Part shown: positions 4,821 to 42,513 of the stretch, piece by piece
Layout of the letters: each line of letters opens with the position of its first letter
How positions within the stretch are numbered: position 1 is the first letter of the stretch
Assembly (NCBI GenBank): GCA_913063835.1
Contig: CAJXZV010000001.1
Span: 1,366-65,365 of the forward strand
Direction of reading: 5' to 3'
Source: an uncultured Eubacteriales bacterium
GTDB lineage: Bacteria; Bacillota; Sulfobacillia; UBA995; UBA9673
Length of the DNA: 64,000 nucleotides
The notes under the pieces: model-generated
The model's input: the letters and a program-made list of their open reading frames with translations, nothing else
Database searches by the model: none
Told to the model about the DNA's origin: nothing
Translations under genes and position numbers: made by a program

Positions 4821-5080
4821 GGCCGCGCACCCACCTTTGACCCTGTCCCTCCCGGCGGTACCGGCGGGGCAAGCTCGGACCAGGGGTACCCGCGGCACAC
4901 GGGAGAGCCTGCTTACCGCTGCTCCCTTCCGGGCCTGACGGGGTTCACAGGTTCCCGTTGCGCAGGGCCAGGTCGTCAACACCGCCGTCGCCGGCCGGCC
5001 CGACAGGAAAAGGCCGGGGGTGGGAATTCGACCCCGCTATAGCGGGTTGCGGGTTCAGGGCACCGCTACCTCCCCGTCTA
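4821..5080 (-). ncRNA. ffs: Signal recognition particle RNA, long Bacillus type with Alu domain (scRNA/ffs)
   Basis: The minus strand carries GTCAGGCCCGGAAGGGAGCAGC and GTGTGCCGCGGG (domain IV). It also carries GGGGAGGTAGCGGTGCCCTGAACCCGCAACCCGCTATAGCGGGGTCGAATTCCC (Alu domain), matching remembered B. subtilis scRNA. The 5' end GGCCGCGC pairs with the 3' end GCGCGGCC. Confidence 0.8.
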
Positions 5081-5148
5081 GCGCGGCCAAGACCGTAGTA
5101 TTCCAAGGATGGGCGTTAAGAAAGGGCGGAACGCTCATGAAGAATGAA

Positions 5149-5238
5149 TGGCGGAAGGGGCGGGATTCGAACCCGCGAGGCGGTCACCCACCTACACGCT
5201 CTCCAGGCGTGCTCCTTAGACCTCTCGGACACCCTTCC
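5149..5238 (-). tRNA. tRNA-Ser (anticodon GGA)
   Basis: Long variable arm. Anticodon stem-loop CACGC-CUGGAGA-GCGTG, GGTTCGAATCC T-arm, CCA encoded. Confidence 0.8.
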
Positions 5239-5286
5239 GACCCGAAGAGAGTCAAGACCGTGACCGTTTTCAATGTGCCTTGTGGC

Positions 5287-5380
5287 TGGCGGAGGGGGTG
5301 GGATTCGAACCCACGAGGCGGTCACCCGCCTACTCGATTTCGAGTCGAGCTCGATCGACCAGACTCCGACACCCCTCCGC
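5287..5380 (-). tRNA. tRNA-Ser (anticodon CGA)
   Basis: Long variable arm. Anticodon stem-loop CTCGA-CUCGAAA-TCGAG, CCA encoded. Confidence 0.8.
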
Positions 5381-5386
5381 GTCCGT

Positions 5387-5866
5387 CTACCCGGCCCGGC
5401 CGCCCGGCCCAGGGGCCCGCCTGGCCCGGAAGAAATCCTGCATCACCTTCGCGCACTCGGAGGCCAGGACACCCCGGCGCACCTCCAGCCGGTGGTTGAG
5501 GCGCTCGTCCTGGACGATGTTCATCAGGGACCCGGCCGCCCCGGCCTTCGGGTCGGCGACTCCGAAGACCAGCGTCCGGACCCTCGCCAGGACCAGGGCT
5601 CCCGCACACATCGGGCACGGCTCGACCGTCACGTAAAGGGTGGTCCCGTCAAGGTGCCAGGTCCCCTTGTCCGCGGCCGCCGCCCGCAGCACCACCACCT
5701 CGGCGTGGGCCGTCGGGTCGGACAGGGTCTCACGGAGGTTGTGGCCCCGCGCGATGACGGCCGAGCCGTCAACAAGAACGGCCCCGACGGGAACCTCCCC
5801 TTCGGCGGCCGCCTTCCTGGCCTCGGCGAGGGCCTCCTCCATGAAGTGCTCGTCCCTGGTTTTCAC
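5387..5866 (-). CDS. tadA: tRNA-specific adenosine deaminase
   Basis: HAEVVVLR and VEPCPMCAGAL zinc-binding deaminase motifs. Next to the SRP RNA, as tadA is next to scr in B. subtilis. Confidence 0.85.
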   Translation of the reverse strand: MKTRDEHFMEEALAEARKAAAEGEVPVGAVLVDGSAVIARGHNLRETLSDPTAHAEVVVLRAAAADKGTWHLDGTTLYVTVEPCPMCAGALVLARVRTLVFGVADPKAGAAGSLMNIVQDERLNHRLEVRRGVLASECAKVMQDFFRARRAPGPGGRAG

Positions 5867-5889
5867 GCCTCACCGCTGCTCTGCAAAGA

Positions 5890-5966
5890 TGGTGCGCCCG
5901 GAGGGACTCGAACCCCCGGCACAGGGATTAGGAATCCCTTGCTCTATCCACCTGAGCTACGGGCGC
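5890..5966 (-). tRNA. tRNA-Arg (anticodon CCU)
   Basis: Anticodon stem-loop AGGGA-UUCCUAA-TCCCT, CCA encoded. Confidence 0.8.
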
Positions 5967-5998
5967 GTCAAGCCAAGAACAGAATATGCAAAGGAAAA

Positions 5999-6076
5999 TG
6001 GTGCGCCCGAGAGGACTTGAACCCCTGACCTACTGATCCGTAGTCAGTCGCTCTAATCCAGCTGAGCTACGGGCGC
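5999..6076 (-). tRNA. tRNA-Arg (anticodon ACG)
   Basis: Anticodon stem-loop ACTGA-CUACGGA-TCAGT, CCA encoded. Confidence 0.8.
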
Positions 6077-6091
6077 ACGCACATCTTGGTC

Positions 6092-6187
<96 letters not shown>

Positions 6188-6298
6188 TATTCGGTTGTCA
6201 ATCGATCGGGCAGGCCGACCGTGCCGGCGGCCCGGCTTCAGGCTATCTGGCTTATTAAGGATAGCACAGGGCGACTCTCAACTCAAGGTCGGAGCTCC

Positions 6299-6385
6299 TG
6301 GCGGAGGGGGCGGGATTCGAACCCGCAAGCCCGAAAGGGCGCCGGTTTTCAAGACCGGTCCGTTACCGTTACGGTACCCCTCCGC
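6299..6385 (-). tRNA. tRNA-Ser (anticodon UGA)
   Basis: Anticodon stem-loop CCGGT-CUUGAAA-ACCGG, CCA encoded. Confidence 0.75.
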
Positions 6386-6549
6386 AGCCCTGTCGAACAC
6401 CCGTCAGGCGGCCTCTACTGAACGGCCTCTCTCCGGCCGGCGCAGAAAAACTATAGCACGCCCCTCTCGCAGGGGTCAATCGAGCCGCCGGCGCCGTCCG
6501 CGCGCGCCTCGTGCGCACAGGCCGCGGAGCCCCCGGGCGGAAGGTCCAC

Positions 6550-9087
<2,538 letters not shown>

Positions 9088-9091
9088 CACT

Positions 9092-9946
9092 TCAGGCGTC
9101 CAGACTCCCGGGTCCGCCCGCCCACTTGGCCCCCGGGATGGACACGGCCTTGCGGCATCCGCAGTCCGGGTCGTCCTCGACGCTCCGGATGGCCGCAGCG
9201 AGCAGGGAGACGACCCGCTCGTTGTTGGCCTTGAAGACCTCGAGGACCGCCTCATGGGTCACGGGCGGGACGCTCGGGTCGTCGGCCAGGCCCACGTCGT
9301 AGTCGGTGATGAGGGCCACGTTGGCGTAGCACATGTTCAGCTCGCGGGCCAGGACGACCTCGGGGTACTGGGTCATGGAGATGACCTCCCAACCCGCCTG
9401 GCTGAACCACTTGCTCTCGGCCCGCGTCGAGAAGCGCGGGCCCTCGATGACGACCACCGTGCCGCCGTCGTGCACGGTTATCCCCAGCCTGCGGGCTTCG
9501 GCGACCAGGAGGCGCCTGAGACGCGGGCAGTACGGGTCGGCCAGGCTGACGTGCACGGTCACCGGCCCGTCGTAGAAGGTGGCGGGGCGGCTCCGGGTGC
9601 GGTCGACGAACTGGTCGCACACCACGAAATCCCCGGGCTTCACGTGCGGCTGCAGGCTCCCGGCCGCGCACGGCGCGAAGACGGTCTTCACCCCGAGCTC
9701 GCGCATCGCCCACAGGTTGGCCCGGTAGGGTATCTTGTGCGGCGGATACTGGTGCCCTCGCCCGTGCCGCGGGAGGAACGCCACCCGCTTGCCCTCGAAC
9801 TCCCCCACGGTGATGACGTCACTCGGAGGGCCGTAGGGGGTGTCCACCCAGACCTCGACCGCGTCCTTGCCGAGGAGCTCGTAGAACCCCGAGCCCCCGA
9901 AGACGCCTATGTCGGCCTTGAACTTCCCTTCGGTGTGCTCGGCCAT
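9092..9946 (-). CDS. mtnP: S-methyl-5'-thioadenosine phosphorylase; start taken at MAEHTEGKFKADIGVFGGSGF
   Basis: PNP/MTAP family motifs GVFGGSGFY and RHGRGHQYPPHKIPYRAN. Confidence 0.8.
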   Translation of the reverse strand: MAEHTEGKFKADIGVFGGSGFYELLGKDAVEVWVDTPYGPPSDVITVGEFEGKRVAFLPRHGRGHQYPPHKIPYRANLWAMRELGVKTVFAPCAAGSLQPHVKPGDFVVCDQFVDRTRSRPATFYDGPVTVHVSLADPYCPRLRRLLVAEARRLGITVHDGGTVVVIEGPRFSTRAESKWFSQAGWEVISMTQYPEVVLARELNMCYANVALITDYDVGLADDPSVPPVTHEAVLEVFKANNERVVSLLAAAIRSVEDDPDCGCRKAVSIPGAKWAGGPGSLDA

Positions 9947-10302
9947 CGGCTCGACCTCCGCTTCCTCGTCACTTGTTCTTCCAATCGTCTTCTCCCCCGT
10001 CTTCCCCGGGAAGCTGAAAGCCCCTGACCGGAACGGCCAGGGGCGTGAAGGCACGCGGTGCCACCCTGTTTCAGGCCCTGCGCCCGGGCGCGGCCGCCGC
10101 GCAGGGCCTCTCGTTCGAGCGGTATCGGGCTCGACCCGCCGGCTCATCGCCTGGAGCTCCGGGGTGGATTTCAGCCCCCGCCGGGGCGGCTCGCACCGTC
10201 CGCCGCCTCTCTCACGCTTCCGGCAAAGGGCCTACTCTTCCCGTCATCGCCGCGGGCCGCGGTCAACACTGGAAGTCGCGGCCACCTCTTCGAGTTAGCG
10301 GT

Positions 10303-10332
10303 ATTATACAGTCCCGTGGGCGGAGGGGTCAA
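10303..10332 (-). promoter_or_regulatory. Candidate sigma-A promoter (TTGACC, 18-nt spacer, TATAAT) for the mtnP-mtnA operon, preceding a ~350-nt leader
   Basis: Hexamers read on the minus strand. No coding potential lies between this promoter and the mtnP start. Confidence 0.4.
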
Positions 10333-10616
10333 ACGCGGCGGCAGGCGAACTCCGGTTGCGGTCTCACGTTCTCAAGCGGTTTCATCGCTCTTCGCCCGGC
10401 GCCTGGAGCTTGGCGACCTTGTCCACAAGGCCTTGTGTAGATGGACCCGCTCCGCCCCGCGTAACGGTGCTCGAAGGCGCCTCTGAACTCTCGCAGACGT
10501 AAGGTGTGCCGCTCTCCGGGTCACGCCCCAACTGGCAGGTGAGGTCCCCGCCGATGGGGCTGACGAAGAGGGCGGCCGTCACCGGGTCGATGGTCGCGCA
10601 TCCGCGCTCCCGCGGC

Positions 10617-11384
10617 TCAGGAGCCCGGCTCGAACTCCACCAGCCGTGAGAGGGTCTTGGCGCCCGTATTCTCGTACTGGACCAACTGGTGCGGCGCCTC
10701 GGCGTTCACCCAGGCCGTCTGGCCCACCCCGACCAGCTCGACCTTCCAGCAGTCGAACCTCCCGAGGGGGACGGTCACCTCCTCCCGACCGACAACCCTC
10801 ACGGTGAGCCGGGCCTTGTTCGCCGTCTTGGAGACGATGAGGTTCACCGCTCGCTCCCATCCTTCACCAAGGGGGAACGCGCGGAGCGTGGCCACGAACT
10901 GCTCGTTGTCGAAGTAGGGAGGAGCCGGGAGCCTCACGGTCGCCTCCTGCGCTTCTCCGTTCACCGTGGCTGAGATGACCAGCTCCTTCTCCCCGTAACG
11001 GCCCGTCAGGGTCGCCTTCACCTGGGGGCTCTCGAGGGTGTAGTCTATCGCCTGCGGAAGCAGGGTCCCGGAGGCGACGCGGACAGCCGAAAGCTCGCTC
11101 CCCTGGGGGCTCCAGGTCTCCGAGGTGATGACCCACCCCCCGTCCGGAACGGCCGCCACATCGATCTTCCACTCGGCCACGAGGGCCCCGGTCTCGCTGT
11201 TGACGACCTCCAGCCGCGAGGACTCACCGTCACGCCAGGGGACGGTGAGCACCAGCGGCTCCTCTTCCGGCCGACGGCAACCCGAACCGGCGGCGGCCAA
11301 GACGGCCAGAGCGAGGACCGTCACCAAGATGCAGGCCAACGCCCTACCGGCACAAGAGCGGCCCCTAAGGGCATGACTTCGCAT
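10617..11384 (-). CDS. Secreted protein or lipoprotein of unknown function
   Basis: N-terminal signal peptide ending AAGSGC. No recognisable catalytic motif. Overlaps the upstream membrane-protein gene by 20 nt. Confidence 0.5.
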   Translation of the reverse strand: MRSHALRGRSCAGRALACILVTVLALAVLAAAGSGCRRPEEEPLVLTVPWRDGESSRLEVVNSETGALVAEWKIDVAAVPDGGWVITSETWSPQGSELSAVRVASGTLLPQAIDYTLESPQVKATLTGRYGEKELVISATVNGEAQEATVRLPAPPYFDNEQFVATLRAFPLGEGWERAVNLIVSKTANKARLTVRVVGREEVTVPLGRFDCWKVELVGVGQTAWVNAEAPHQLVQYENTGAKTLSRLVEFEPGS

Positions 11385-41809: not shown

Positions 41810-42513
41810 ACATCCTGGACTGGATCGTGGTGGCCTGCCTGACCGTCGGCGCGGTGCGCGGTCTCAGGCGCGGACTCGTGCGCAGCGTCCTGGGGCTGGC
41901 CGGACTCATTCTCGGGCTCGTCGTGGCCTCCCGCTTCTACCGCCCGCTGACCGAGTACCTCGAACTGCACTACGGGGCGGTCACCCGCATGGCCTCCGGG
42001 ATTGCCGCTCATCTACCCCTCCCGTCGACGGTGGCCGCCACGCCGGCGTCCGAAGGGGGGGCCTTGGTCGAGGCCGTCCAGGGAATGGGCCTGCCCGAGT
42101 TCGTCACGGGATACCTGGTGGCTGGTGCCGAGCAGCTTGCCAACCTGCCGGACGCCGCCACCGTGGGCGAGGCTCTGGCGACTCTCCTCGCCTCCTCTGT
42201 CGTCGGGGTGCTCTCCTTCGTCGCCCTGTTCGTGGCGACGCAGGTCCTCACGGCGCTCCTGGCATGGGTCATCTGCGGGATGATATCCGTGACCCCGCTC
42301 GTGGTCGTCGACAGGCTCGCCGGGATGGTCCTGGGTGCGGTCTACGTCGGGGTCGTCGTGACCCTGGTCATCGGAGGTCTCGCCCTCCTGGCCGGGATGC
42401 CGGCTTTCTCCTTCATGACCCAGGTGCTGGCGGCGTCCAAGACGGCCCCGTTCTTCCTGGACCTGTTCGAGCTTCTCCTCCCCCGCATCCCGGACTGGCT
42501 GTCCTTGGGGTAG
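41806..42513 (+). CDS. cvpA: CvpA-family membrane protein (colicin V production protein)
   Basis: MNILDWIVVACLTVGAVRGLRRGLV N-terminus and four TM helices. Confidence 0.7.
   Translation: MNILDWIVVACLTVGAVRGLRRGLVRSVLGLAGLILGLVVASRFYRPLTEYLELHYGAVTRMASGIAAHLPLPSTVAATPASEGGALVEAVQGMGLPEFVTGYLVAGAEQLANLPDAATVGEALATLLASSVVGVLSFVALFVATQVLTALLAWVICGMISVTPLVVVDRLAGMVLGAVYVGVVVTLVIGGLALLAGMPAFSFMTQVLAASKTAPFFLDLFELLLPRIPDWLSLG

Follow-up and report, generated by a model that had tools for sequence, protein, structure and literature searches.

Methionine-salvage genes of Bacillus, organized in mtn operons, stand behind S-box (SAM-I) leaders, and the question raised by the locus studied here is what occupies that place upstream of the mtnP and mtnA genes of the window (the whole stretch of DNA that was analyzed, 64,000 nucleotides long). 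The first-pass annotation had described a sigma-A promoter followed by approximately 350 nt of hairpin-rich sequence without coding potential, had found no recognisable S-box, and had left three options: a divergent SAM element, a different riboswitch class, or a protein-dependent attenuator. It proposed a scan with Rfam riboswitch models, the T-box included, and a search for covariation in relatives. We find that the leader is a T-box riboswitch (RF00230), a new case of an established type.

The boundaries of the leader were explored from the promoter to the first gene. The promoter is present and matches 11 of the 12 consensus positions, while shuffles of the region average 0.0 such sites, and equivalent TTGAC-N17/18-TATAAT sequences are found in the relatives immediately upstream of stem I. 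Transcription would start near 10296, about 7 nt 3′ of the TATAAT box. The non-coding leader measures about 350 to 355 nt from the −10 box to the mtnP ATG, which is the first credible start codon downstream of the promoter and is preceded by a GGAGG ribosome-binding site. The window sequence matches the MAG contigs DPTM01000097.1 and SDWF01000146.1, and no gene was called in the leader gap (2235-2906) on an identical public MAG contig (L161, GCA_003530255.1), in agreement with the lack of coding potential noted earlier.

The leader has a GC content of 0.74, and the folding of its whole length beats that of shuffles (z = −2.2). Both of the strong hairpins described at first pass fold as claimed at the places given for them (10108-10074 and 10043-10011), the second one reading CCCCTGGCCGTTCCGGTCAGGGG and then CTTTCAGCTT. 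The single-sequence minimum free energy fold of the whole leader recovered stem III and the terminator, the rest of the T-box architecture was not reproduced, and this fold was left out of the structural model. An extra hairpin between the start site and stem I, outside the T-box core, occurs only in the window and in its relative L081, being absent or different in the other relatives.

The default Rfam scan at gathering scores reported nothing in the leader. A permissive scan of positions 9850-10450 (E up to 10) matched the T-box leader family RF00230 at 10250..10039 with 48.5 bits, spanning model positions 7 to 216 of 219 (E = 1.3e-9 with the region as search space and 1.4e-7 with the full 64-kb window). 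This is the sole significant Rfam family in the leader region. The default scan missed it because 48.5 bits is below the curated gathering score of 93, and this large deficit is also the reason why the element had looked unexplained. The bits are lost through a truncated stem II and GC-rich insertions. The homologous leader of L178 scores 93.1 bits, at the gathering score, and that of L057, a more distant Bacillota MAG, 87.2 bits. The leaders of the other relatives score 40 to 48 bits, with matches that are often limited to stem I because of long inserts. The other sub-threshold Rfam matches (P35, ApoB CRE, and sRNAs) had E values of about 1 to 10 and were set aside as chance.

Neither the permissive scan, which covered 9850-10450 with E up to 10, nor the scans of the whole window matched a SAM family, a result that upholds the reported absence of an S-box and, of the three options, leaves the different riboswitch class as the right one. 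A divergent SAM-binding riboswitch, another metabolite riboswitch, and a protein-dependent attenuator have together a probability close to nil. Such an element would suit a first gene that is mtnP, given that the methionine-salvage genes of Bacillus are S-box controlled, but this expectation is inapplicable here because it was drawn from the Bacillus mtn operons. The T-box modules account for the whole leader, with no conserved segment left unexplained. Moreover, the specifier UCC and the bulge UGGC read tRNA-Ser, and nothing points to a protein-dependent attenuator. The modules of the T-box riboswitch and the surrounding genes are collected in Table 1.

Table 1. Features of the T-box leader, the genes behind it, and the predicted tRNA ligand, in window coordinates.
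Feature	Position	Strand	Details
Sigma-A-type promoter	10303..10332	minus	TTGACC-N18-TATAAT; −35 TTGACC 10332-10327, 18-nt spacer, −10 TATAAT 10308-10303
Extra 5′ hairpin	10255..10283	minus	GGCCGCG-N15-CGCGGCC
T-box stem I	about 10153..10252	minus	K-turn, AGUA box, AG bulge, distal loop, specifier loop; from the Rfam alignment
Specifier codon	10166..10168	minus	UCC (Ser), followed by conserved purine A10165
Stem II remnant	10141..10151	minus	GGC-GAUGA-GCC; 5 nt where the Rfam model has 17
Stem IIA/B pseudoknot	10115..10138	minus	F-box-like CCCGAUA; IIA = CGG/CCG; loop UCGAGC pairs with downstream GCUCGA
Stem III hairpin	10074..10108	minus	GGCCCTGCGCGGCGGCCGCGCCCGGGCGCAGGGCC; preceded by conserved purine run GAGAGG; from the Rfam alignment and folds
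T-box sequence	10054-10067	minus	AGGGUGGCACCGCG; conserved across relatives
Antiterminator (includes the T-box sequence)	10039..10067	minus	bulge UGGC 10063-10060; 3′ strand CGCCCCU ends at 10039
Intrinsic terminator (predicted)	10011..10044	minus	11-bp stem GCCCCUGGCCG-UUC-CGGUCAGGGGC 10044-10020; weak U tract UUUCAGCUU 10019-10011
mtnP, S-methyl-5′-thioadenosine phosphorylase	9092..9946	minus	284 aa; ATG at 9946; RBS GGAGG 9959-9955
mtnA, S-methyl-5-thioribose-1-phosphate isomerase	7936..9087	minus	TIGR00512, 422 against a cut-off of 279
serS, seryl-tRNA synthetase	6550..7851	minus	TIGR00414, 553 against a cut-off of 302; 84 nt after mtnA
tRNA-Ser(GGA)	5149..5238	minus	anticodon GGA; 3′ end ...CCCUUCC-G-CCA, discriminator G73

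Stem I carries the basal K-turn (GA motif) GCGAUGA ... GGAGC, the AGUA box AGAGUA, the AG bulge AGAGA at 10212-10208, a distal loop GGACGGUGCGA (10201-10191, containing GGUGCGA) that caps a 6-bp distal helix, and the specifier loop GAAAUCCA. A covariance model built for this stem, R1, gives the window leader 112 bits. When about 1.5 Mb of loci were searched with R1, exactly one strong match per leader was obtained, plus a weak match in L057 (18.6 bits), and nothing else convincing was found. The weak matches at positions 41990-42033 of the window and 183-238 of L081 (E 0.2 to 0.5) were excluded as spurious.

The search for covariation was rewarded in both stem I and the pseudoknot. In alignment A5 (13 sequences), which was fitted to the model and hence leans toward the structure, 95.4% of the stem I cells are standard pairs and compensatory (both-side) changes are seen in 13 of the 20 pairs. 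None of 500 shuffles reaches any of these measures, and slid partners pair in 30 to 56% of cases. Compensatory change is also visible in the raw sequences, where GGCGGC/GCCGCC in stem I is replaced by GCCGUC/GACGGC in L178. The slid controls and the raw-sequence compensatory changes argue that the stem I helices are real. For the stem IIA/B pseudoknot, the plain MAFFT alignment A6 has 94.3% of its cells paired and three compensatory pairs, with slid controls at 15 to 44%. Stem II is truncated in the window, where its distal part is missing, and in L081; the other relatives retain that part, with stem II inserts of 20 to 80 nt. A hairpin is found at the position of stem III in every relative, with varying sequence and length (16 to 70 nt).

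The tRNA specificity was read by the specifier and discriminator rules of TBDB, by which the specifier triplet lies 2 to 4 nt before its loop ends on the 3′ side and has a purine after it (PMC7778990). The specifier loop of the window reads GAAA-UCC-A, which fits this rule. UCC and the purine that follows it (A or G) are invariant in the 13 leaders, with the preceding base varying between A and G, and the loop of L178 is the 7-nt GAAUCCA. Ser(UCC) T-boxes of serA/serC are known, and for Clostridia UCC has been described as a specifier of Ser (as cited in PMC8002221). In the window, a tRNA-Ser gene located approximately 5 kb downstream of the leader has an anticodon, GGA, that is the exact complement of UCC. 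At the other contact site, the antiterminator bulge UGGC is complementary to the tRNA 3′ end GCCA. The variable base of this bulge being C, discriminator G73 is called for, and each of the four tRNA-Ser genes that the window encodes has G-CCA at its end. The predicted ligand is tRNA-Ser(GGA).

The loop GAAAUCCAC contains the overlapping triplets AUC, UCC, and CCA, and where it ends is set by the choice of GGGA/CCCC or CGGG/CCCG for the lower stem. A T-box that reads tRNA-Ile (AUC) or tRNA-Pro (CCA) from the same loop is nevertheless exceedingly improbable. The A/G variation before UCC would turn AUC into GUC in L166, L172, and L176, and the L178 loop GAAUCCA was counted as leaving no AUC. A purine always follows UCC, as the T-box rule demands, whereas CCA would precede C or G. 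Moreover, tRNA-Ser carries the G73 that the bulge UGGC demands, whereas tRNA-Ile and tRNA-Pro carry A73, which would need UGGU. The gene found downstream is serS, with neither ileS nor proS. The Ile and Pro readings were rejected on the loop variation, the following purine, and the discriminator, and serine is the specificity retained here.

The 14-nt T-box sequence, which in T-box leaders forms an antiterminator with a 7-nt bulge UGGNACC, is conserved across the relatives. All leaders but that of L178, which reads GGGTGGCAACGCG, contain the 13-mer GGGTGGCACCGCG, and UGGC is invariant. Nucleotides 10044-10039 are common to the 5′ arm of the terminator and the 3′ arm of the antiterminator, which makes the two structures mutually exclusive. 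Their folding energies are −23.2 kcal/mol for the terminator versus −5.3 kcal/mol for the antiterminator. The hairpin at 10044-10020 was not called by a simple terminator scan because its U tract is weak. In the MAFFT alignment A3, the terminator helix displays no compensatory changes and shuffles do equally well, since the close clade shares one arm sequence and L171, L178, and L057 do not align in register. The terminator was assessed instead by per-sequence folds, and these gave a terminator hairpin followed by U3 to U6 in all relatives (U4 to U6 in most). L178 and L057 have terminators of different sequence at the equivalent place. The hairpin lies 65 nt 5′ of the ribosome-binding site and is predicted to be a transcription terminator for that reason, not a Shine-Dalgarno sequestrator.

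The relatives used for these comparisons were mainly MtnP homologues (69 to 96% identity) that were traced to their contigs, plus two metagenome loci, and a metagenome scan with MtnA gave two syntenic loci only. By SerS, the nearest named relatives among the matches listed are Thermaerobacter MAGs, with 64 to 66% identity. The matches listed in the SerS scan of genome contigs were mostly from distant phyla, and only L002 and L057 were informative among them. Twelve related leaders from uncultured high-GC Bacillota keep the arrangement seen in the window. All twelve have the sigma-A promoter, stem I, UCC with its purine, the pseudoknot, stem III, UGGC, and a terminator followed by a U tract; neither UCC nor UGGC varies.

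This degree of conservation bears on whether the leader could be a T-box relic, in decay and no longer able to switch, in an operon that is constitutive or otherwise controlled. The truncated stem II, the weak U tract, and the Rfam score below the gathering score of the window leader would fit such a relic. This is a very unlikely reading, given that the critical motifs are intact, namely, the K-turn, the specifier with its purine, AGAGA, the distal loop, the pseudoknot, the T-box 14-mer, UGGC, and the overlapping terminator. The leader is nearly unchanged in L081, and compensatory changes have accumulated across relatives whose proteins are 69 to 86% identical. T-boxes without any stem II (glyQS type) are functional.

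A T-box of Ser specificity has to be reconciled with the genes that it precedes. The identities given to these genes at first pass were correct, since both exceed the curated cut-offs of NCBIfam equivalog models (for MtnP, NF005876 with 368 against 306 and TIGR01694 with 314 against 275, in addition to the Pfam family PNP_UDP_1). The mtnA gene starts 4 nt past the stop codon of mtnP. The framing of the operon as a two-gene unit concerned with methionine and SAM did not stand, because a third gene, serS, had been overlooked. The products of mtnP and mtnA act in the recycling of methionine and methylthioadenosine (MTA), which is unrelated to serine, and so the first two genes mismatch the amino acid of the T-box. 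The third gene, which is located approximately 2.1 kb downstream of the terminator, matches it. The Ser specificity is accounted for by serS, and only the place of serS as third gene of the apparent operon puts the T-box in front of methionine-salvage genes. The simplest reading of the sequence is one transcription unit comprising the T-box, mtnP, mtnA, and serS, in which serS would be cotranscribed with the first two genes.

Simple consensus scans of the minus strand from 9200 to 6480 found no promoter-like or terminator-like sites, and the next promoter-like site, TTGACC-N18-TATAGT (6479..6450), follows serS and serves a tRNA cluster. The 84-nt spacer between mtnA and serS holds a modest hairpin and then UUCUUCC, but its fold is no better than that of shuffles (z = +0.46). 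A terminator or promoter in this spacer was rejected on the shuffle-like fold and the lack of consensus sites. Partial termination or processing may occur at the spacer hairpin.

A rival reading gives serS a promoter of its own, in or after mtnA. The Ser T-box would then control mtnP-mtnA alone, with a link to serS that is merely positional. In its favor, simple consensus scans could miss a non-canonical promoter, and the 84-nt spacer of the window does hold a hairpin followed by UUCUUCC. We consider this arrangement very unlikely, since there is no promoter-like site on the minus strand of 9200-6480, the fold of the spacer is shuffle-like, and the corresponding spacer of relatives (L057, L166, L174, and L178) is just 4 to 66 nt long or is replaced by an overlap. 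Furthermore, a Ser-specific T-box ahead of two methionine-salvage genes alone would have no rationale, and in L057 the equivalent T-box stands ahead of mtnA-serS without mtnP.

The single transcription unit is also the arrangement suggested by gene order. The order leader-mtnP-mtnA-serS-tRNA cluster-tadA-SRP RNA is found in every locus with at least 69% MtnP identity (L081, L082, L164, L166/167, L169, L171, L172, L174, L176, and L178). The mtnA-serS spacers of the relatives range from an overlap to 66 nt, with the exception of L082, where a divergent SerS paralogue is inserted between mtnA and serS. In L057, mtnA and serS overlap. Farther away, the genes for an MtnB-like aldolase, MtnA, and SerS are consecutive in a Thermaerobacter MAG (L002), with no T-box there. 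In Limnochordales MAGs, mtnP adjoins metK-ahcY instead, and the genes for more distant MtnA homologues (44 to 58% identity) do not adjoin serS.

Taken together, these observations make it very probable that the leader is a transcriptional (class I) tRNA-Ser T-box heading mtnP-mtnA-serS, with tRNA binding, termination, and readthrough predicted from the sequence. The proposal builds on the T-box mechanism as summarised in PMC7778990 and PMC8002221. Transcription would begin about 7 nt downstream of TATAAT, and the nascent stem I would bind tRNA-Ser(GGA) by pairing of UCC with the anticodon and by contact of the AG-bulge/distal-loop platform with the tRNA elbow. An uncharged tRNA would offer a free 3′ end, GCCA, for pairing with UGGC, and this pairing would stabilise the weak antiterminator and let RNA polymerase continue into mtnP, mtnA, and serS. 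With a charged tRNA, the antiterminator would be left unstabilised, and the much stronger terminator would form and stop transcription before mtnP.

In GC-rich uncultured Bacillota, genuine T-boxes can thus score far below the Rfam gathering score (40 to 48 versus 93 bits), and default scans leave them as unexplained structured leaders for this reason. The specificity of a T-box needs to be read against the whole operon and not against the first gene alone. In this clade, the expression of the MTA phosphorylase and of the methylthioribose-1-phosphate isomerase is predicted to track the charging of seryl-tRNA, and not SAM or methionine. This would be a small oddity in the wiring of sulfur and one-carbon metabolism to translation.

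The functional meaning of a coupling between MTA salvage and serine status, if there is any, is speculative. Cysteine owes its carbon skeleton, and methionine its one-carbon unit, to serine. It is conceivable, though doubtful, that the control of mtnP and mtnA by tRNA-Ser (and, in L002, the presence of the MtnB-like aldolase gene by mtnA-serS) is adaptive and not an accident of gene order, or that MtnA or MtnP has a role linked to SerS. If the former were true, serine starvation would turn on methionine and MTA salvage, thereby sparing serine; if the latter were true, the role would be an unrecognised one in this lineage. Genes mtnA and serS lie side by side behind leaders as divergent as those of the window, L178, and L057, and also in the Thermaerobacter MAG that has no T-box, a distribution compatible with either of these readings.

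Among known systems, the S-box leaders of the Bacillus mtn operons are, like the window leader, long and structured, and carry a terminator ahead of methionine-salvage genes. The S-box leaders sense SAM, whereas the window leader has no SAM aptamer and its predicted effector is a tRNA. In the literature searched, we found no report of methionine- or MTA-recycling genes between a T-box and serS. A synthetase gene in a downstream position has precedents, as second place in a T-box operon is common for cysS and asnS (PMC2494555). As in the cysE-cysS type of B. subtilis, the T-box of the window stands at the head of the operon and the matching synthetase gene further downstream. In the cysE-cysS type, the upstream gene belongs to the metabolism of the same amino acid, whereas in the window the upstream genes serve methionine and MTA recycling and not serine.

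The serA T-box of Paenibacillus polymyxa, which has been tested experimentally, is Ser specific, with specifier AGC and bulge UGGU (PMC8002221). Ser-specific transcription attenuation is likewise predicted for the window, with UCC and UGGC in place of AGC and UGGU and with MtnP, MtnA, and SerS in place of a serine biosynthesis gene. The closest parallel in ligand and target is the serS T-box itself. The serS gene is among the most consistent T-box targets, with T-box regulation in at least 29 of 34 Firmicutes (PMC2494555). The window leader differs from the serS T-boxes of B. subtilis and other Firmicutes in that serS is the third gene, approximately 2.1 kb past the terminator and behind two methionine-salvage genes. 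It is also GC rich (0.74), its stem II is truncated, its stem III is long and made of GC pairs, and its U tract is weak, and these features explain why it attains only 48.5 of the 93 bits. In its stem I modules, stem IIA/B pseudoknot, stem III, T-box sequence with UGGN bulge, and competing terminator, it is like those T-boxes, and the ligand and target predicted for it, uncharged tRNA-Ser and serS, match theirs.

The adjacency of mtnA and serS reaches past the T-box-bearing genomes, since a Thermaerobacter MAG (L002) carries mtnA-serS at a locus where no T-box match was found. There, mtnA-serS is directly preceded, with zero intergenic space, by an ORF that was called class-II-aldolase/MtnB-like on visual inspection of the translated sequence. 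In Limnochordales MAGs (L179-L181:1-5301), the closest homologue of mtnP (65% identity) was observed downstream of metK and ahcY, with neither mtnA nor serS near it; this setting is a SAM-cycle context rather than a serS context.

Among the relatives, the same Ser T-box heads a unit in L082 that holds a divergent SerS paralogue. This protein scored 270 bits against TIGR00414, under the cut-off of 301, and is ~26% identical to the SerS of the window.

Features of the window and of the compared loci
Feature	Location	Strand	Remark
DUF3108 gene	window 10617-11384		
Further non-coding stretch, ~280 nt	window 10340-10617	-	DUF3108 gene to promoter
Extra hairpin GGCCGCG-N15-CGCGGCC	window 10255-10283	-	predicted start site to stem I
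Conserved block 3' of serS	window 4823-6479	-	same order in relatives
Promoter of the block, TTGACC-N18-TATAGT	window 6479..6450	-	block's own
tRNA-Ser(UGA), Ser(GCU), Arg(ACG), Arg(CCU)	in window block 4823-6479	-	
tRNA-Ser(CGA), tRNA-Ser(GGA)	in window block 4823-6479	-	
tadA-like deaminase	window about 5420-5850	-	
Large SRP RNA	window 4823-5086	-	
Sub-threshold RF04351/RF04354/sX4 matches	window 6095-6150	+	
Divergent SerS paralogue, 443 aa	L082:5222-6550	+	between mtnA and regular serS
Class-II-aldolase/MtnB-like ORF	L002:4359-6019	+	directly 5' of mtnA-serS

In the block that follows serS, the tadA-like deaminase comes after the group of four tRNA genes and before tRNA-Ser(CGA) and tRNA-Ser(GGA), with the large SRP RNA last; it neighbours the gene of tRNA-Arg(ACG), its expected substrate. 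Rfam also gave sub-threshold matches to sX4 and to two "plastid" families, RF04351 and RF04354, in the window and in L001, L002, L004, L014, L057, L082, L164, L169, L171, L172, and L176. Every one of them overlaps a tRNA gene or runs antisense to one, and they appear to be false positives of these models on tRNA sequence.

Upstream of stem I, the extra hairpin was found in the window and the relative L081 only, and comparison of these two revealed no conservation of the non-coding stretch ahead of the promoter. In both, stem II of the T-box is cut down to GGC-GAUGA-GCC (window 10141-10151, minus strand), whereas it spans 20 to 80 nt in the other relatives, and the pseudoknot is retained. This arrangement is intermediate between full T-boxes and those of the glyQS type, which lack stem II altogether.
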